Shown piece after piece: positions 41,532 through 63,356 of a DNA stretch of 64,000 bases (position 1 is the stretch's first letter; each line of letters opens with the position of its first letter). The position numbers and the translations under genes were made by a program. The notes beneath the pieces are model-generated. The model saw only the letters and a list, made by a program, of their open reading frames with translations. It did not search any database and was not told the origin of the DNA. The stretch comes from an uncultured Actinomycetota bacterium (GTDB lineage Bacteria; Actinomycetota; Actinomycetes; JACCUZ01), in the NCBI GenBank assembly GCA_963697675.1, contig CAVOOW010000006.1:1203518-1267517 (forward strand). Reading direction: 5' to 3'.

Positions 41532-42761
41532 TCAGCGGGTGGCCGGGGAGCGAAGCCCGGGGATGCGCAGGATGCCGGTGTCCGCATCTTCGTCGGGAGG
41601 CAGGTAGAGCCGCTGCACCGCTGCGACGATCGCCTCGGCGAGCACGTCACGGAAGGCGGGGTCGGACAGGCGGGCCGCGTCCGAGGGGTTGGTGAGGTAG
41701 CCCAGCTCGATGCGCACCGCCGGCATCCGGGTGCGGCGAAGCAGGTCCCAGGTCTTGGGGTGCGTACGCAGGTCAACGAGGTCCGTACGCGCGCAGACCT
41801 CTCGTTGCACGAGATCAGCGAAACGCTCGCCGACGACCGAGTGGTGGCCGATGCGGTCGTTGCCGAAGTAGTAGGTCGAGCAGCCCGCGGCCATCCGACT
41901 GCTGTGGGCGTCGACGTGCAGCGAGATGACCAGGTCCGCCCCGGCAGCATTGGCGAAGCTGGCTCGGTCCACCTCGTCGAGATCACCGTCGGGGCCGCGG
42001 GTCAGGAACGCCGAGCTGCCGGTCGCGGTGAGCCGGCCCTCCACGCGGGAAGCCAGGTCGTAGACCAACACGGCCTCGCCCAGCTGGTGCCCGCCCACGC
42101 CGCTGTCCTGCCCACCATGGCCCGGGTCGATGATCACCAGCTTGCCGGACAGCGTCGGACCGGCCCGGGTGATCGCTTCGGTCTCGCGCATGGCCTGCGG
42201 CTGGCCGCCCACCACCGTCCGCGCCAGCTGGAGGAGGGCCTTGAGCGTCGTCGGACCGCAGGTGCCGTCGGCGGGGATGCCGATGTTGCGCTGGAACTCC
42301 CGCAGCGCCTGCTCGGTCTCCACGCCGAACAGACCGTCGACCCGTCCGCAGTCGAAGCCCATGTCGAGCAGCCGCTGCTGCAATGCACTGACGTCGTCGC
42401 CGGCCAGCAGCCGGGCGGGGATGTAGGAGAGGATCCGATCGCCCAGCCGCCAGCGCGCTTCGTCGAGGGCCTGGTAGGTCGTCCCGCCGACAACGCCGTC
42501 CACGGTGAGACCGCGCTGCTGCTGGAACGTTCGTACGGCGCGGTCGGTGTCCTCGTCGAAGGACGCTGTTCCAGTGCCCGCCAGGGGGCCGAGCGGATCC
42601 GGCCGCAGCTGCAGCAGCTCCAGGCGTGCCAGCTTTGCCCGGATCTCTGCCACGGCGGGCCCGGTGTCGCCGCGTCGGTAGGCACGCTCGAGGGACAACG
42701 AGTCGATGCTCCTGATTCGGTTCGGAGAGGATCCGGTCTCGGCGGTTGCCAAACGCATCAC
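41532..42761 (-). CDS. cwlM: N-acetylmuramoyl-L-alanine amidase with two peptidoglycan-binding domains (CwlM-like)
   Basis: Two PGRP-binding repeats followed by amidase_3 (LVIIDPGHGGQDSG). Confidence 0.8.
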   Translation of the reverse strand: MMRLATAETGSSPNRIRSIDSLSLERAYRRGDTGPAVAEIRAKLARLELLQLRPDPLGPLAGTGTASFDEDTDRAVRTFQQQRGLTVDGVVGGTTYQALDEARWRLGDRILSYIPARLLAGDDVSALQQRLLDMGFDCGRVDGLFGVETEQALREFQRNIGIPADGTCGPTTLKALLQLARTVVGGQPQAMRETEAITRAGPTLSGKLVIIDPGHGGQDSGVGGHQLGEAVLVYDLASRVEGRLTATGSSAFLTRGPDGDLDEVDRASFANAAGADLVISLHVDAHSSRMAAGCSTYYFGNDRIGHHSVVGERFADLVQREVCARTDLVDLRTHPKTWDLLRRTRMPAVRIELGYLTNPSDAARLSDPAFRDVLAEAIVAAVQRLYLPPDEDADTGILRIPGLRSPATR

Positions 42762-42925
42762 CGGGCGCGCCGATGCTACCGCGCGGATCTACCCCGCTCG
42801 ACCACGGTCAATGCCTTGTTGACGGTGCCGAATTCTCCGCTTCTCAGCGGAAATGATCGCGAACCTCGGGCGATTGTCCGCTTCGGTCGGAGCGGACGGC
42901 TCCTGGGTGGGGCGGCGGCTGACGA

Positions 42926-43252
42926 CTAGATGAAGGCTTCGAGGTCCTTGAGCAGCAACGCCTTGGGCTTGGCGCCGACGATCGTCTTCACGACCTGGCC
43001 GCCCTGGTAGACGTTGAGCGTCGGGATCGAGACGACGCCATACTCCGCGGCGGTTGCCGGGTTCTCGTCCACGTTCAGCTTCACGATGGTGATCTTGTCG
43101 GCGTGCTCACCCGCGATCTCCTCGAGAATCGGGGACACCTGGCGGCACGGACCGCACCACTCTGCCCAGAAATCCACCAAGATCGGCTTGTCGTGCTGAA
43201 GCACGTCAGCGGTAAAGGTGGCGTCGGTGACCGACTTTGTGGTGTTGCCCAC
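42926..43252 (-). CDS. trxA: thioredoxin
   Basis: [10 protein letters not shown] active site; 108 aa. Confidence 0.95.
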
Positions 43253-52416: not shown

Positions 52417-52916
52417 GCGGTGTCCGCGAGCAGACCGGCCGCGGTCTCGGCCAGCCGCCGCTCGCCGGCGTAGGCCAGATGGGCCCCGAGCTCATCGAGC
52501 GGCACCCACGCCACCTCGTCGACCTCGATGTCCTCGTCGGAGAGCTCTCCACCTGAGGCGACGAGCAGGTAGTGGTGCACCGTCTTGTGGACCCGCCGGT
52601 TCTCGGCGACGAACCAGTAGTCGATCGTGCCGAGCGCAGCGATGACCGTGCCGCGGATGCCGGTCTCCTCCTCGACCTCTCGTACCGCGGCGTCTTGTGC
52701 GGTCTCGCCCTGCTCGACGTGGCCCTTGGGCAGCGACCAGAGCAGGCGGCCGCGGCGGTCACGGCGGCCGATGATCGCCACCTGTGGCCGCGCTCCCGAC
52801 CGGTCGACGACCAGCCCGCCGGCGGAGGTCTCCTCGACCTTGCGCAGGCCCGGGCGGCCTTCCCCGGGGTCGCTGCGGCGGGCGCCGCGCCGACGGGGTG
52901 CGGGAGTCGAGGGCAT
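52413..52916 (-). CDS. NUDIX hydrolase (MutT4-like)
   Basis: Nudix box [22 protein letters not shown]; start trimmed to the ATG at 52916. Confidence 0.8.
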
Positions 52917-52990
52917 CGCTTGATCGTATCCAGCCGAGACGGCCCTGCCCGTGCGGTGCAGTCGGCGGCACGCGACGTACCCTGCCTGCC

Positions 52991-54451
52991 GTGCCTGTTG
53001 AGACGCCCGCCCCCCGCGACGGCCTGCAAGAGGTACGGCGCCGGTTGATCGCGGAGCTGATGCGGCGTGGCGCGATCTTCGACGAGCTCGGCCGGCGGTT
53101 CCAGGACGCCGGTCACGAGCTGGCTCTGGTGGGCGGCACCGTGCGCGACATCCTGCTCGGCCGTCCGTCACCGGACCTCGATTTCACCACCGATGCCCGG
53201 CCGGAGCAGATCACCGCGCTGCTGCGCGGTTGGGCCGACGCCTGGTGGGAGGTAGGTGCGGCTTTCGGAACGGTCGGCGGCCGCAAGGGGGACGCCGTGA
53301 TCGAGGTGACGACCTACCGCGACGAGGTCTACCGGCACGACTCGCGCAAGCCCGAGGTGACTTTCGGCGACTCCCTGGAGCACGATCTGGTGCGCCGTGA
53401 CTTCGCTGTCAACGCCATGGCGGTCACGCTGCCGGAGATGACCTTCGTCGATCCGCACGACGGGCTCGGCGACATCGGGCGCCGCGTGTTGCGCACGCCG
53501 GGTCGCCCGGAGGACTCGTTCAACGACGACCCGTTGCGCATGCTGCGCGCTGCCCGGTTCTCGGCAACGCTCGGCTTCGACGTCGACCCCACCGTGGTGT
53601 CGGCCATCACCGAGATGGCCGGTCGCATCTCGATCGTGTCGGCGGAACGCGTGCGGGACGAGCTGGTCAAGCTCATCTGCGCCCCGCAGCCGCGCCGCGG
53701 CCTCACGCTGCTGGTCGACACCGGGTTGGCCGACCACATCCTGCCCGAGCTGCCGAAGCTGGCGCTCGAGATCGACGAGCATCACCGGCACAAGGACGTC
53801 TACGAGCACACGCTCACGGTGCTCGAGCAGGCCATCGACCTCGAGGAGCCGGGCGCCGCACCCGACTTCGTGCTGCGGTTCGCCGCGCTGATGCACGACG
53901 TGGGCAAGCCCAAGACCCGTCGCTTCGAGCCCGACGGCGGGGTCTCGTTCCACCACCATGAGGTCGTCGGCGCGAAGCTGACCGCCGCCCGGATGCGGGC
54001 CTTGCGGTTCCCCAACGACGTGACCGCGGATGTCTCCCGGCTCGTCGAGCTCCACCTGCGATTCCACGGATACGGCACGGGGACGTGGACCGACTCCGCC
54101 GTACGCCGCTATGTCGCCGATGCCGGCCCGCTGCTGGACCGCCTGCACAAGCTGACCCGGTCGGACAGCACCACCCGCAACCGACGCAAGGCGATGCAGC
54201 TGTCGGCGGCCTACGACGACCTCGAGGAACGGATCGCCCGGCTGCGTGAGCAGGAGCAGCTGGAAGCGATCCGGCCGGATCTGGACGGCAACGCGATCAT
54301 GGCCATCCTCGGGGTGCCGCCCGGTCCGGTGATCGGGCGGGCGTGGGCCCATCTGAAGGAGGTGCGTCTCGACCAGGGGCCGTTGCCACCCGAGGCGGCT
54401 GAGGCCGAGCTGCGCCGCTGGTGGGCCGACCAACCCGAGTCGCCCCCCTGA
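52991..54451 (+). CDS. cca: CCA tRNA nucleotidyltransferase
   Basis: [20 protein letters not shown] polymerase-beta head and HD domain ([11 protein letters not shown]); GTG start. Confidence 0.85.
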
Positions 54452-54470
54452 CCCCCCGCGTTGACCATGC

Positions 54471-54508
54471 GGAATCGACCACGTTCAGCATGCTGGCGGA
54501 CGGTTCGC
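54471..54508 (+). repeat. 38-bp repeat copy A (GGAATCGACCACGTTCAGCATGCTGGCGGACGGTTCGC)
   Basis: Identical at 37 of 38 positions to the inverted copy at 55950-55992. Confidence 0.8.
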
Positions 54509-54569
54509 CATGCCTGCACGCCCGGCAAGGCGTCCTTTCACCTGGCACAGCAATCCGCCTCACCGGCGG

Positions 54570-55871
54570 TCACGCGAGTTCGGCGGAGGAAGTCGTGGCC
54601 GGGCTGCGGGAAGCCCGGCCGAAGACCAGGGCGGTAATCGCATAGCCGCCGGCGACAACGGCGAAGACGGCCGGAGAGTTGCCGTCGGCGGGCAGGGCCA
54701 GCGCCCCGAAGGCCGCGGCTGAGACGAAGGACACGTTGAACAGCACGTCGTAGAAGGAGAACACGCGACCCCGGTAGGCGTCGTCGATCGACTCCTGCAC
54801 GATCGTGTCGACGCAGATCTTCGAGCCCTGTGCGGCGACGCCGACCACGAAGGCGCCGACGAGCAGCATCCATTCCTGTAGGGCCACGACGTAGACCGCC
54901 GACGCCGCAGCTGCGAACGCGAAGCAGGTCGTGATCCACGTCGTCTTGCGCACGCGATGGGTGATCTCAGGTGTGATCACGGCCGCGAGGAAGAAGCCGA
55001 GTCCTGATGCGGCGAACGCTGAGGCCAGTCCGGCGAGACCCGCGTCGACGTCGTCGGGGTCGTTGAAATAGCTGCGGAACAGCAGGATTCCCGAAATGGT
55101 CGAGATGCCGTAGAAGAAGCGGTGCGCGGCGATCGCCGCCAACGCCCGGCCTGCCGCTCGGTGCGTCCACACGTGGTGCGCCCCGTCGACCAACCCGCGG
55201 GCCACGCGACGTACCGCTTCTCGTGTTTGTGCCGGCTCGTCCGCGAGGTCGGGCCCCAGCAGGTCGCGGTCCATGCGAGCCGCAACCATGGCGGAGATGA
55301 CGTAGCCGAGCGCTGCGACGACGATCACCTGCGCGTCGGCCGCGCTGCCCTCGCCGAAGAGTTTCTTGAGGCCGAACCCGATGCCGGCGCCGCCGATCGC
55401 GACGATCGTGCCGCTCGTGGTCGACACGCTGTTGGCCATGACGAGCTCCGCGCGTACGACGACGTGCGGCAGGGCCGCGGACAGGCCGGCGAGGAAGAAC
55501 CGGTTGACCGACAGGCAGGCCAGGACTGCGACATAGAGGGTCGGGCCGGTGACCTGTGCCGCGACGAGCGCCCCGACGCCGAGCACCATCGCGGCGCGCA
55601 GCAGGTTGGAGAACACCAGAATCTGCCGGCGCCGCCATCGGTCGAGCAGGACTCCGGCGAACGGTCCGACCAGCGAATAGGGCAGCAGCAGTGTCGCGAA
55701 TGCGGCCGCCACACTGGTCGCGGAGGTCTGCTTCTCCGGCGAGAAGAAGAACAGGCTGGCGAGTGCCGCCTGGAAGGCGCCGTCGGCGGCTTGCGAGGTC
55801 AGCCGGGTGCCGTAGAGCCGTCGAAAGTCACGATGACGTACGACGGCGCGCAGGTCGCCGGCAAAAGACAC
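54570..55871 (-). CDS. MFS transporter
   Basis: 12-TM major-facilitator architecture; 433 aa. Confidence 0.8.
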   Translation of the reverse strand: MSFAGDLRAVVRHRDFRRLYGTRLTSQAADGAFQAALASLFFFSPEKQTSATSVAAAFATLLLPYSLVGPFAGVLLDRWRRRQILVFSNLLRAAMVLGVGALVAAQVTGPTLYVAVLACLSVNRFFLAGLSAALPHVVVRAELVMANSVSTTSGTIVAIGGAGIGFGLKKLFGEGSAADAQVIVVAALGYVISAMVAARMDRDLLGPDLADEPAQTREAVRRVARGLVDGAHHVWTHRAAGRALAAIAAHRFFYGISTISGILLFRSYFNDPDDVDAGLAGLASAFAASGLGFFLAAVITPEITHRVRKTTWITTCFAFAAAASAVYVVALQEWMLLVGAFVVGVAAQGSKICVDTIVQESIDDAYRGRVFSFYDVLFNVSFVSAAAFGALALPADGNSPAVFAVVAGGYAITALVFGRASRSPATTSSAELA

Positions 55872-55900
55872 CCCGCCAGGCTATGCGCCCTCCCCTGAGG

Positions 55901-55992
55901 GGAATCGACCACGTTCAGCAGGGCCGCGGACGGTTCGCAAGGCGTGCGGGCCTTGCGAACCGTCCGCCAGCATGCCGAACGTGGTCGATTCC
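55901..55992. repeat. 92-bp palindrome formed by two head-to-head copies (B, B') of the 40-bp repeat
   Basis: Left arm 55901-55943, centre GTGCGG, right arm 55950-55992. Lies between ino1 and the MFS gene. Confidence 0.8.
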
Positions 55993-56008
55993 GGAACCCG
56001 AGCTGGGG

Positions 56009-57088
56009 CTAGCGGTCGACCTCGCCGCGGATGAACTTCTCGACGAGGTCGCGCGCGGTGTCGTCGTCGTGCTGCTCGGGCGGGGACTTCATGAAGTAGG
56101 ACGACGCGGAGAGCAGCGGTCCGCCGATGCCGCGGTCCAGGGCGATCTTCGCGCACCGGATGGCGTCGATGATCACACCGGCCGAGTTGGGCGAGTCCCA
56201 GACCTCGAGCTTGTACTCGAGGTTCAGCGGCACGTCGCCGAAGTTGCGGCCCTCGAGCCGGACGTAGGCCCACTTGCGGTCGTCGAGCCACTGCACGTAG
56301 TCCGACGGTCCGATGTGTACGTTGCGCGCGCTGAGCTTGTTCTCCATGTTGGACGTGACGGCCTGGGTCTTCGAGATCTTCTTCGACTCGAGGCGGTCGC
56401 GCTCGAGCATGTTCTTGAAGTCCATGTTGCCGCCGACGTTGAGCTGGTAGGTCCGGTCGAGGATCACGCCCCGGTCCTCGAACAGCTTCGCCAGCACGCG
56501 GTGCGTGATGGTGGCGCCCACCTGCGACTTGATGTCGTCACCGACGATCGGAACGCCGGCGTCCTCGAACTTCTTCGCCCACGCGGGGGTTCCGGCGATG
56601 AAGACCGGGAGTGCGTTGACGAATCCCACGCCGGCGTCGATGGCGCACTGCGCGTAGAACCTCGCCGCGACCTCGGACCCCACTGGCAGGTAGCAGACCA
56701 GTACGTCGACCTGTGCGTCCCGCAGGACCTGAACGACGTCAACCGGCTCCTCGTCGGACTCGGTGATCGTCTCGCGGTAGTACTTGCCGAGCCCGTCGTG
56801 GGTGTGACCGCGCTTGACCGTGATGCCCGTGGGCGGCACGTCGGCGATCTTGATGGTGTTGTTCTCGCTCGCGAGGATTGCCTCCGCGAGGTCCTGGCCG
56901 ACCTTCTTGGCATCCACGTCGAAGGCGGCGACGAACTTCACATCGCTGACGTGGTAGTCGCCGAACTGCACGTGCATGAGGCCGGGCACGCGGCCCTGCG
57001 GGTCGGCATCCTTGTAGTACTCGACGCCCTGAACCAGCGACGCGGCGCAGTTGCCTACGCCGACAATGGCCACTCGAACGGAACCCAT
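56009..57088 (-). CDS. ino1: inositol-3-phosphate synthase
   Basis: [29 protein letters not shown]-binding N-terminus; 359 aa. Confidence 0.9.
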
Positions 57089-60621: not shown

Positions 60622-62016
60622 TGCCCGACAGGATGGACGCCGTCGCCCCTTCGCGCGACGACGACCTCGTACGCCTCGGTAGCGAGGTGATCGGCGGCCC
60701 ACTCGGTCACCACGCCCGCACCGACTTGCATCGGTGGTGGACGCCGATGCGAGTCGTGCTCGTCCTGGTCTTCGCAGTGAGTGCCCTCGGTGTCATCAGC
60801 AAGCAGCCGTGCCGGGCCGACGGCTGGACCGCTCCCGCGCAGTACACGCACGCGTGCTACAGCGACATACCGGCGCTCTACTTCGCGCGCGGGCTTGCGG
60901 ATGGTCAGTTCCCCTACATCGACCAGCCGCGTGCGGAGCAGGTCGAGTATCCCGTGCTGACCGGGCTCGCGATGTGGATGACGGCGAAGCTGGTGCCGTC
61001 CCACGACAGCCCGACGAAGCGCGCGCGCTGGTACTTCGACCTCAACGTGATCGCCCTCGCGGTGGCGCGCCGCGGTGGCCGCCGCGGCAACGCTGCGCAC
61101 CGCCGGGCGGCGCCCGTGGGATGCGGCGCTGTTCGCGGGCGCGCCGATGCTCGCGCTGACCGGCACGATCAACTGGGACCTGTACGCCGTCGCGCTGCTC
61201 GCCCTGGGGATGCTGGCGTGGTCGCGCGAACGGTCCTTGGCCGCGGGTGTCCTGATCGGTCTCGCCGCGGCCGCGAAGTTCTATCCGCTGTTCATCCTCG
61301 GACCGTTGCTCGTGCTCTGCCTGCGTGCGGGGAAGATGCGCGAGTTCTACGTCGCGCTCGGCGGCGCGGTGGTCGCGTGGCTGGCGGTCAACCTGCCCTT
61401 CATGCTGGCCGACTTCGACGGTTGGTCGCGCTTCTACGTGCTGAGCCGGGAGCGAGGCGTCGGCTTCAGCTCGATCTGGTTCGTGCTGAGCCAGCAGGGC
61501 TACACGCTGTCGGAGTCGCGTCTCAATCTGGTGGCCGGAAGTCTGTTCGTGCTGGCCTGCGCGGTGATCGCGGCACTGGCCCTGCGGGCGCCGCGGCGCC
61601 CGCGACTGCCGCAGCTCGTGCTGCTGGTCGTGGCCGCATTCCTGTTGACCAACAAGGTCTATTCACCGCAGTACTTGCTGTGGCTCATCCCGCTCGCCGC
61701 CCTGGCGCGACCGCGATGGCGCGACCTGCTGATCTGGCAGGCCGGCGAGGCGATCCACTTCGTCGGCATCTGGATGCTGATCGCGGGCTACCCGCCAGGC
61801 AACGCGAATCGCGCGCTGGGTGAGGACGGCTATGACGTCACCGTTCTCGCGCACATCGCGGGGACTGTGTGGCTGATGGCCATGGTCGTGCGCGACATCC
61901 TCCGCCCCGAGAACGACCCCGTACGCCTCGATGGCTCCGACGACCCCGCCGGTGGTGTCCTCGACCACGCCCCCGACGCCTTCCCCGCCGCGAGCCGATC
62001 CCCGGCCGTCAGTTGA
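60621..62016 (+). CDS. DUF2029/GT87-like polytopic membrane protein (Rv0051-like), apparent frameshift near 61070-61100
   Basis: The N-terminal 150 aa lie in the frame of ORF 60621; the remainder (MLALTGTINWDLYAVALLALG...) lies in the frame of ORF 61075. The junction is in the GC-rich stretch gcggtggcgcgccgcggtggccgccgcgg. Confidence 0.6.
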
Positions 62017-63322
62017 CCACGTTTGGTAGGCGGGGCGTCGCGTCAGCAGGCATGCACGCCTGCTGAGCGCGACAGTTCGCCTCGTGAGGCGGTTCGCGGT
62101 TCGTGCGGCCACCGGGTTTCCACAGCCGCCGTCATGTGGGCGACGGGCAGGTGGCCTGTGTACAGCCGAGTTCGGTGCCTTCGTACGCGGCACCCTCGTC
62201 CAGGTGGACGTCACCCAGGAACTGGATATCACCCAGGCTCTCGCCGGTCTGGCACCCGGCCTTGCCGCGCATGCCGCGACGCAACGCGGCGTGTTCACTG
62301 GCGACCAAGCCCGTGACGCGCACTACAGCGACGGTGAGATACAGCGGCTGCGCCGGTCCAAGCGACGACCCGAGCAGTGGCTCTCGATCCGGCGCGGCGT
62401 CTACGTCGTCAAGCAGTGGTACGACGGGTTGCGCGCCCTTGGAACAACACCGGGTGAAGCTTGCTGCATTGGCGCTGGTGCTGACCGAGCCTGCGGTGCA
62501 GAGTCACGTCTCGGCCGCGGTCGAGCTCGGACTCGAGATGCTCGAGCCTGACCTGTCGCGAACTCCATGTCACCAGGGCAGAGCTGAAGGGCTCGCGACA
62601 CGAAGCCGGGGTCCATCACCACGCCGGCGGAGCTGCCTGTGGGCGATGTGCTCCAGACGTACGGACGGGTCAGTGTCACGGGAGCCGCGCGTACCGCCGT
62701 CGACATCGCACGCGAGAGCGAACGTCTCGAGCAAGGTGTTGCCGTGTGTGACTCCGCCCTGCGCGGTGGTGTCACGCGGGAGGAGCTCACCGAGGTCATG
62801 ACGCGGTGTCGCAGTTGGCCGGGTGCGCGGCTGGCCTCACGTGCGGTGTCGATGGCCGACGGTCGAGCGGACAACCCCGGCGAGTCGTGGTCGCGCGTCA
62901 TCCTCGTGGCGAACGGGCACGCACCGACCGATCTTCAGCGCGAGTTCTTCGACGACCGCGGGCGTGCCGGCATCGGTGACTTCTTCTGGGAAGAGGAGAT
63001 GGTCGTCGGCGAGTTCGACGGGAAGCTGAAGTACGCCGTTGCGGAAGGTGCCACAGCCGACGAGGCGGCGCGCGCCATCATCGCGGAGAAGCGTCGCGAG
63101 GATCGGCTGCGGGCAATGGGGCTGGAGTTCGTGCGCTGGGGTTTCGGCGAGCTCTACCGGCCGCGACTGTTCGTGGCCAAGGTCGCTGCCGCCACGTGCG
63201 CGCGGTGCGGCCCGGTGGCGTTGAGCTAGTCGGAGAGTCGACCACTTCAGCAGGCGAACGGTCGCCTCAACAGGCGTGCACGCCTATTGGCGCGACGCCC
63301 CGCCTACCAAACGTGGTCAACT
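62011..63322. mobile_element. REP13E12-like ~1.3-kb unit with ~75-bp imperfect terminal inverted repeats (outer 32 bp identical)
   Basis: Left end AGTTGACCACGTTTGGTAGGCGGGGCGTCGCG at 62011-62042; its exact reverse complement ends at 63322. The inner arms stay ~75% similar (CAGCAGGCATGCACGCCTGCTG core). Confidence 0.6.
62084..63229 (+). pseudogene. DUF559 endonuclease-like protein, frameshifted
   Basis: N-terminal AbiEi-like region (RGVFTGDQARDAHYSDGEIQRLRRS...RRGVYVV) in one frame; DUF559 C-terminus (GDFFWEEEMVVGEFDGKLKY...RLRAMGLEFVRW) in another. Confidence 0.55.
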
Positions 63323-63356
63323 GCGGGGCGGTGCGGGGCGGCGGCGGCGGCGCGGG

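Follow-up and report, generated by a model that had tools for sequence, protein, structure and literature searches.

Hairpin elements of a dispersed family bracket a resident transporter gene in an uncultured soil actinomycete, with a candidate nuclease partner

The window analyzed here is a 64 kb stretch of DNA (64,000 nucleotides) from an uncultured Actinomycetota bacterium, in which a gene encoding a major facilitator superfamily (MFS) transporter lies between ino1 and a cca-type gene and is bracketed by three copies, A, B and B′, of a repeat of about 40 bp. Do these repeats mark the ends of a cassette that carried the transporter into the interval, or do they belong to a family of small dispersed elements resembling transposable elements of the miniature inverted-repeat kind (MITEs) or repetitive extragenic palindromic (REP) sequences? 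A sequence-only reading of the locus had allowed for both. Comparison with short metagenome contigs and loci, numbered L002-L087, favors the second answer. With a probability of roughly 0.7, B and B′ together are one complete copy, and A one decayed solo-end copy, of a family that resembles MITEs and REP doublets forming hairpins (REPINs), with an insertion sequence (IS)-like unit encoding a nuclease as its likely helper. That the family is mobile and the MFS gene a resident is, to judge from the sequences compared, close to certain. The host lineage of the family is uncultured soil Actinomycetes.

The coordinates and counts in the sequence-only reading are all correct, as re-reading of the sequence and a repeat search confirm. 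One mismatch separates the 38-mer of copy A (54471-54508) from its minus-strand match at 55955-55992 (37/38 identical; 0 expected by chance, 100 shuffles), and A and B′ are thus inverted around the MFS gene, as had been described; their similarity reaches 66 nt at 86% identity. The 16-mer GGAATCGACCACGTTC has exactly three occurrences in the 64 kb, at 54471, 55901 and, on the minus strand, 55977. B (55901-55943) and B′ (55950-55992) lie head to head with 43-nt arms, 88% complementary, around a 6-nt loop. The resulting 92-bp palindrome between ino1 and the transporter, also seen earlier and borne out by arm pairing and folds, is the longest hairpin of the window. Folded as RNA it reaches −93.3 kcal/mol (z = −9.8), and as single-stranded DNA, on either strand, −48 to −50 kcal/mol (z = −12.8). 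Copy A alone folds no better than shuffles (z about −0.2 to −0.4). The small ESTTF[GS]MLADGS reading frames are a direct product of the repeat sequence and, as suspected, artefactual; the 92-bp elements hold only such frames and are non-coding.

B/B′ (55901-55992, minus strand) is one complete 92-bp hairpin element of the window's own type, here called family 1, and scores 103.6 bits against a covariance model built from an oriented alignment of 37 copies. It is located 16 nt past the ino1 stop codon and 29 nt ahead of the MFS start codon, with B′ as its X arm and B as its Y arm. Copy A corresponds to an X arm. It is a solo, decayed family-1 long terminal repeat (54471-54552, plus strand), recognizable by the 38-mer match and by a register match to the terminal repeats of the larger unit described below, and is composed of an X-arm terminus, GGAATCGACCACGTTCAGCATGCTGG, a degenerate apical hairpin and an inner segment, ...CACCTGGCACAGC. 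The terminus faces the cca stop codon and the inner end the MFS stop codon. The covariance model matches copy A at 54489-54544 (27 bits) and at 54471-54557, and the copy runs on to about 54552 as a distinct one-ended variant.

A strict two-block pattern drawn from the three window copies was run on 185,579 species-representative genomes and on soil metagenomes. It has no match among the genomes, so the exact family 1 is not represented there; in the soil metagenomes it picks out 42 contigs with 43 element sites, at 37 distinct genomic positions with their own flanks. A looser pattern, limited to the shared core (GACCACGTTY, 57-63 nt, RAACGTGGTCRA), detects related families in metagenome-assembled genomes (MAGs) assigned to Jiangellaceae, to Sporichthyaceae and to unclassified Actinomycetota; a single MAG holds five of them. 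BP_174 and GCA_030841025.1 are examples of MAGs in which such elements abound. When the 64 kb are scanned with the covariance model, exactly four significant elements appear: A, B/B′ and two more, C and D, which bracket a second gene of the window, the one in the larger unit. For the palindrome, Rfam returns only sub-threshold miRNA-hairpin noise, and BLAST searches of plasmid and phage collections give no matches. Three pattern matches on viral contigs were set aside as chance, there being no hairpin between their cores.

The family is therefore not confined to this locus, and its sites have a recurrent position. Among the 43 that can be classified by gene context, 15 lie between convergent, 25 between tandem and 3 between divergent genes. 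Tandem sites always abut the stop codon of the upstream gene, and the nearest stop is typically 2-35 bp away. The 78 neighboring genes match 108 Pfam families with ordinary chromosomal or housekeeping functions, and neither a transposase nor a REP-associated tyrosine transposase (RAYT) recurs among them. Of the features that define MITEs, short non-coding sequence, terminal inverted repeats, dispersed copies with different flanks and insertion polymorphism are found here.

A full element consists of a terminal stem of about 20 bp, a small asymmetric bubble, an apical stem of about 18 bp and a 6-nt loop. The terminal stem is 95% paired across the 37 copies and holds an invariant 9-bp core, GACCACGTT...AACGTGGTC, at a fixed 60-nt spacing; the asymmetry of the bubble is also constant across copies (X side ...CAGCATGCYGGCGG, Y side ...CAGCAGGTGWACGG). 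Over the 37-copy alignment, 89.8% of cells are paired, compared with about 30% when the partners are slid, and 22 pairs show double-sided (compensatory) changes; none of 500 shuffles reaches the observed values. Most family-1 copies have a constant length of 92 bp with the ends GGAATCGACCACGTTCAGCA...TGCTGAACGTGGTCGATTCC, and their mean identity is 86%. A second type, family 2 (CAGTTGACCACGTTTGG...), is 62% identical to family 1. The two have the 9-bp core, the core-to-core spacing and the GGCRTGCAYGCC apex in common and differ in their stems, and although the sequence of the apical stem changes between families, it remains paired. About one quarter of the copies are one-ended: they have no second terminus, and a recurrent ...CCTRGCRAAGC... 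follows the apical hairpin. Integron attC sites were considered and rejected: with ...CACGTTYRGC as their left side and GCYRAACGTG... as their right side, the elements reverse the R″ (RYYYAAC)/R′ (GTTRRRY) arrangement, and the R positions are not purines.

The MFS gene itself (54570-55871, minus strand; 433 aa; Pfam MFS_1) has ino1 on one side (56009-57088, minus strand; myo-inositol-1-phosphate synthase, Pfam Inos-1-P_synth), past which a PadR regulator gene, assigned by Pfam, continues on the same strand. On the other side is the convergent cca-type gene of the tRNA nucleotidyltransferase/poly(A) polymerase family (52784-54451, plus strand; Pfam PolyA_pol, PolyA_pol_RNAbd and HD), the start codon of which is uncertain and the orthologues of which in relatives have 486-519 aa. 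An exact look-up of the window's MFS protein gave no result, and homologues were therefore used for comparison. Orthologues of the transporter form a smooth series of identities from 98% down to 68%, which tracks the series of the neighboring genes, and the order PadR-ino1-MFS-cca(convergent)-NUDIX-DUF6049-MurJ is kept in every relative examined; contigs L043-L045 encode an identical ino1 protein. The sequence-only reading had proposed looking for relatives without the MFS gene between cca and ino1, but all of them have it there, even where both slots are free of repeats. The 87% relatives (L062-64) have an MFS-cca spacer of 13 bp, and their 116-bp ino1-MFS spacer holds an ordinary small GC-rich hairpin in place of an element; the 68% relative (L066) is also empty of elements. 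Since the gene is conserved in place and some relatives have no repeats, the repeats are the newcomers. On gene order and identity, the MFS gene is a resident, vertically inherited gene and not cargo. With the transporter universal and the repeat found elsewhere, the family half of the sequence-only reading survives, supported by the 37 distinct sites, the empty orthologous sites and the conserved hairpin, while its other half, the footprint of a cassette inserted between cca and ino1, falls.

The same comparison gives the insertion polymorphism: slots are filled in the window, L070, L072 and L065 and empty in L062-64 and L066. In L065 (7305-7396), a diverged member of the superfamily occupies the MFS-cca slot of a relative with 79% identity and overlaps the last MFS codons. 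The empty MFS-cca spacers of 13-19 bp in the 87% and 68% relatives suggest that this element colonized the slot independently. No consistent direct repeat that could be a target-site duplication flanks 13 full copies or five gene-carrying units, in a check made without a near-identical empty site as reference. L003 and window positions 42753-42926 were tried as a filled and an empty site, but their intergenic DNA has diverged too far for the junction to be placed.

Gene content also varies in this region. In relatives with 92-94% MFS identity, a cytidine/dCMP-type deaminase gene is present between ino1 and MFS (L025:787-1440, L059:5248-5991, L061:264-884, L072:2336-3064), bracketed by one full and one one-ended element. 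The same position holds a single hairpin in the window and in L070, and neither gene nor element in more distant relatives. A gene for an extracytoplasmic function (ECF) sigma-70 factor and a gene for a 232-aa protein with a weak SecDF_P1_head match lie between MFS and cca in L059 (7338-8610) and L071 (1985-3189), again among the 92-94% relatives, at the exact position of the window's copy A. Both flanks of the L071 pair carry another type of hairpin-like repeat of about 50 nt, TTTGTGGAC...CACCCGACACGCCGTA.GAGTGGTGTGTC.GAGTCCACAA, possibly a further small repeat family. L006 (978-1070) and L034 (3693-3784) share 98% identity as far as the right end of a family-1 element and are unrelated past that point, a break in synteny or gene content exactly at the element border. 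In L045 (1135-2438), a gene for an IS30-like transposase (HTH_38 and rve) is located inside the family-2 hairpin downstream of ino1, which it breaks after ...GGTGAACAGTCG; the hairpins are thus themselves insertion targets for an unrelated IS. This gene was rejected as a candidate mobilizer, because its ends have no relation to the termini of the repeats and a family-2 element is itself disrupted by it.

In the closest relative, L070 (and likewise in L043-L045), the slots tell a further story. The genes of the window and L070 are nearly identical (349/352 at ino1, 1257/1305 at MFS and 983/1008 at cca), whereas the slots are non-homologous, with only 88/137 and 61/118 positions identical. L070 has family-2 versions in the window's architecture: ino1 is followed by a full hairpin, and a one-ended copy turns its terminus to cca. 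Between copy A and the cca stop codon, the window retains a remnant of a family-2 terminus (54459-54469, plus strand), CGTTGACCATG (compare CAGTTGACCACG): outside copy A it reads TGACCCCCCGC-GTTGACCATGC followed by GGAATCG, where L070 has TGACCCCCCGCAGTTGACCACGTTTGG..., an intact family-2 terminus. Similar leftovers are found in L002 (CAGTTGACC, overlapping a stop codon) and L076 (GTGGTCAACTG), so that family-2 remnants of 9-11 nt lie outside family-1 copies in three cases. In L002 (bases 1054-1062 when the contig is read in reverse complement), nine bases of the family-2 terminus persist, and family 1 replaced family 2 there. More swaps of family at orthologous gene ends are seen between L023 and L055, between L031 and L049 and at the slot of a GT87 glycosyltransferase gene discussed below. 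The leftover termini indicate replacement in situ at some earlier time. As read from these alignments, the same slots have turned over between competing families beside flanking genes that are 96-99% identical. At the MFS end (window 54540-54572, L070:1770-1800), the last 10 or so MFS codons and the stop codon differ from those of the 98% relative, and the replaced MFS-cca segment therefore reaches into the 3′ end of the gene.

What could have moved these elements? The best candidate is an IS-like unit of 1.2-1.4 kb, seen in five lineages, in which a single open reading frame (ORF) lies between terminal inverted repeats of 66-101 nt. The repeats are 94 nt and 96% complementary in L002, 82 nt and 85% in L073, 85 nt and 86% in L076, and 101 nt and 76% in L077; in the window they are 66 nt and 88% (62002-62067 and 63266-63331). 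The one-ended copies align in register with the unit's terminal repeats, A among them up to about position 82. The 92-bp hairpin corresponds to positions 1 to about 75 of the terminal repeat joined to an inverted terminus of 17-18 nt, which explains the asymmetry of the X and Y arms.

The window's own unit (62002-63331, plus strand), about 6 kb from the A/B/B′ locus, is decayed. Its 66-nt repeats surround a pseudogene (62222-63193, plus strand) for a protein with an AbiEi-type helix-turn-helix (HTH) region and a Vsr-like nuclease domain, with a frameshifted middle and in-frame stop codons. The pseudogene product has an overall identity of 65% with P0235, which rises to 78% in the C-terminal 189 residues, and one of 42% with the L002 ORF. 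Element C (62009-62100, plus strand; 35 bits) is a family-2 one-ended terminal repeat that starts with CAGTTGA; these bases overlap the end of the GT87 glycosyltransferase ORF (61075-62016; Pfam GT87) and, at 62009-62016, supply its stop codon. Element D (63234-63324, minus strand; 64 bits) is a complete but chimeric hairpin, with one family-1-like arm (GAGTCGACCAC-TTCAGCAGG) and an apical stem and other arm of family 2. At this GT87 slot, the ORF is flanked by family 1 in L002, L073-75 and L076 and by family 2 in the window. The neighboring genes are 84-89% identical, although the nuclease proteins of the window and L002 are only 42% identical, and the protein subfamily changes along with the family of the repeat, from 74-99% identity beside family 1 to 42% beside family 2.

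The decisive independent case is provided by a 52%-identical homologue on ten contigs (L077-L086) of another actinobacterium from different metagenome samples. There, a unit of 1.37 kb with 101-nt terminal inverted repeats lies on the opposite strand between ftsZ and ftsQ-murC-murG, and 30-bp palindromes, GCATCGACCACGT...ACGTGGTCGATGC, which have the invariant core and lie within the 101-nt repeats, stand on each side of the gene. A cell-division cluster (ftsZ/ftsQ) is an unusual place for a selfish insertion. Among about 50 sites, the nuclease gene adjoins elements at one slot only, and no fetched locus has another copy. Such rarity is consistent with a single-copy partner and is not evidence in itself.

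The only domain recognized in the protein by sequence is an N-terminal AbiEi_4 winged helix (Pfam, 27 of 34 members), which PADLOC AbiEi models also match over residues 6-180 or so (E = 1e-20); there are no sequence matches in PDB or NCBIfam. The AlphaFold model is confident, with a predicted local distance difference test score (pLDDT) of 92 and a predicted template modeling score (pTM) of 0.86. With the first 200 or so residues, Foldseek finds the AbiEi antitoxin (6y8q) and Rv2827c (1zel), at E of about 7e-6. The predicted model also has a Vsr-like PD-(D/E)XK catalytic fold. Residues D241, G249-E250-x-D252-G253, K256-Y257 and E275-K276-x-R278-E279-D280 are invariant in the alignment and compatible with a PD-(D/E)XK active site. 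The protein, for which about 245 homologues were found, does not belong to a known transposase type. No AbiEii nucleotidyltransferase toxin gene adjoins it; its neighbors are GT87, an Ala_racemase_N gene, FtsZ and FtsQ.

By the comparison of loci, the hairpin superfamily is a mobile one, two insertions bracket the MFS gene, and a larger unit with the same ends encodes a putative DNA-binding nuclease. The MFS gene was already between ino1 and cca when the elements arrived, and two copies then inserted separately, or were exchanged as a block by recombination, into the short 3′-end intergenic gaps beside it. The nuclease would recognize and cut the invariant core and so mobilize the unit that encodes it, together with hairpins and solo ends in trans. 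Incoming copies would target existing hairpins at gene 3′ ends, and such targeting would explain same-slot replacement with leftover termini of 9-11 nt. The hairpins may incidentally act as 3′-end structures for upstream genes. Actinomycetota would thereby have an analogue of REPINs that does without RAYTs, in which families compete and gene content changes at element borders. In its full form, in which the nuclease acts as transposase or homing enzyme, copies 92-bp hairpins and solo ends to gene 3′ ends, cuts the GACC/ACGT core and overwrites rival families, the proposal is tentative, with the odds somewhat against it. Whether the AbiEi/Vsr-like nuclease is the partner of the elements at all is evenly balanced. 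The argument for it rests on three observations: there is a second, unrelated context, the terminal repeats are long, and protein and repeat family vary together. Since the MFS and deaminase genes are bracketed too, bracketing by itself is a weak argument.

Several observations weigh against the reading of a mobile family helped by this unit. Transposition and cleavage are inferred from comparison, and there is no clean pair of filled and empty sites between near-identical genomes that defines an exact junction. Copies with the X arm outward bracket non-mobile genes in this dense region, both MFS and, in relatives, the deaminase gene. The exchange in both slots around MFS may be a single import by homologous recombination, and the slightly greater divergence of MFS (96.3% identity) relative to ino1 (99.1%) fits such an event. 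The nuclease gene is found in only two kinds of genomic context and looks vertically inherited at the GT87 slot. In the window it survives as a pseudogene between family-2 repeats, although A and B/B′ belong to family 1, for which the 64 kb show no intact partner. A 30%-identical homologue in Tsukamurella tyrosinosolvens (L087; NZ_LR134465.1, 375292-376206) has no flanking repeats, from which the association with repeats would be specific to the protein subfamily of the unit; this homologue, annotated as hypothetical, is located among housekeeping-type genes on a 413-kb 'plasmid'. A RAYT or other transposase acting on these termini could also be encoded elsewhere in the genome, the data being 64 kb and short contigs.

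That last possibility is the main rival: a REPIN/RAYT-type system with a single-copy Y1 (IS200/IS605-like) transposase elsewhere, in which the AbiEi/Vsr-like gene has merely been colonized on both sides. The size of the elements, the long imperfect hairpin and the extragenic sites, often between convergent genes, resemble REPINs, and the lack of target-site duplications, vertical persistence and family turnover are likewise REPIN-like (PMC3116915, PMC3337134). The bracketed but non-mobile MFS and deaminase genes further demonstrate that bracketing can occur without a functional link. However, the elements have neither the GTAG nor the CGTC terminal tag, which is the mark of the two REP superfamilies (PMC3733652). 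No Y1 transposase is encoded by the 78 neighboring genes, and none flanked by repeats is present in the window neighborhood or the 87 loci. In addition, the homologue at the unrelated ftsZ/ftsQ locus again has the core on both sides, and the terminal repeats of the unit, at 66-101 nt, reach past the hairpin element. A RAYT-driven origin is thus unlikely, though it deserves more weight than the remaining alternatives.

One of these is that the palindromes are sites selected by the host, such as terminators, stabilizers of mRNA 3′ ends or sites of an AbiEi-like regulator, spread by recombination or gene conversion, with the palindromes beside the regulator gene as operators. AbiEi antitoxins are autoregulators that bind inverted repeats, and the strong preference for positions just past stop codons, the ordinary GC-rich hairpin in the ino1-MFS gap of relatives without an element and the concerted family identity across neighboring slots, which would suit gene conversion, could all be accommodated in this way. 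Yet the sequence past the B/B′ hairpin is CCCTCAGGGG (on the opposite strand, GGAACCCGAG), with no T/U tract of the kind expected of an intrinsic terminator, and a consensus scan of 54300-56200 finds neither a terminator-like site nor a canonical promoter at the window copies. Copies with a solo end, A among them, persist although they no longer fold. The AbiEi-like gene has palindromes on its downstream side too, not only upstream, and its protein has a predicted nuclease domain with invariant catalytic-type residues. The constant 92 bp and the 86% identity over 37 loci with no relation to one another point to copying and not to independent origins, as do the chimeras, the termini left behind and the polymorphism in presence and absence; host selection as the whole explanation is improbable. 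Least credible of all is the composite transposon or gene cassette with A and B′ as terminal inverted repeats of a mobile unit carrying MFS. The inverted, nearly identical copies do have the geometry of the gene-carrying units, but the transporter is in place in all relatives down to 68%, including repeat-free ones with the 13-bp MFS-cca spacer, and it diverges in step with its neighbors; in L070 a 98%-identical MFS gene is bracketed by the other repeat family.

If the preferred reading of a mobile hairpin family with a nuclease-encoding helper is correct, its interest lies in several directions. The superfamily has a testable anatomy, in which the 9-bp core is invariant, the bubble asymmetric and the stem covarying, and its candidate partner, an AbiEi HTH joined to a Vsr-like nuclease, is of a type not known to mobilize DNA repeats. 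Were the link to the nuclease true, it would provide a new enzymatic route to REPIN-like elements and an explanation for a large group of hypothetical 'AbiEi-domain' proteins in actinomycetes. The elements would also serve as markers of strain-level genome plasticity, as the deaminase gene, the IS30-like gene and synteny breaks fall at their borders. For annotation, the locus is a caution that a gene between inverted repeats need not be cargo. Confirmation of the nuclease link would be of high interest to specialists in mobile DNA; a repeat family around a transporter would, by itself, be of moderate interest.

Among known systems, those of the proteobacteria have been studied well: short dispersed palindromes occur there as REP sequences and REPINs with their RAYTs, and as MITEs with DDE transposases. 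REPIN/RAYT systems of Pseudomonas and enterobacteria share with the present family long imperfect hairpins of about 70-110 nt, extragenic positions often between convergent genes, lineage-specific families of tens to hundreds of copies, a lack of target-site duplication and a rare or single-copy protein gene that is itself flanked by inverted repeat copies. Here, however, the ends are formed by GGAATCGACC and (G)CAGTTGACC, with no GTAG/CGTC tag, neither arm is in itself a small REP palindrome, and the flanked gene encodes an AbiEi-type HTH and a Vsr-like PD-(D/E)XK nuclease instead of a Y1/HUH transposase; in the papers found, REPIN/RAYT systems are not described from high-GC Actinomycetota. 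IS-derived MITEs, such as Correia elements, RUP and MITEAba12, are similarly short, non-coding, intergenic and stably structured, with terminal inverted repeats, insertion polymorphism, a larger element with the same ends and local variation in gene content. The present family differs from them in that no target-site duplication is detected, the larger element has no recognized DDE, serine or tyrosine transposase, replacement occurs in the same slot, and a recurrent solo-end class accompanies the hairpins.

The protein invites two further comparisons. I-Bth0305I is a homing endonuclease of Vsr-like (EDxHD) type (PMC3239194, PMC2677866). Unlike such enzymes, the protein here is encoded in intergenic DNA, not inside an intron or intein, and is fused to an AbiEi-like module; homing endonuclease genes have no long inverted repeats or dispersed non-coding derivatives, whereas the unit has both. 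With AbiE type IV toxin-antitoxin systems it shares the N-terminal 180-200 or so residues, which match AbiEi, and AbiEi proteins bind inverted repeats; in place of an adjoining AbiEii toxin, it has the fused predicted nuclease domain. Within the searchable library, no actinobacterial family of this kind and no AbiEi/Vsr fusion tied to repeats is described. The family thus appears to be previously undescribed, and, as judged from its sequences, it is closest in form and ecology to REPINs and IS-derived MITEs.

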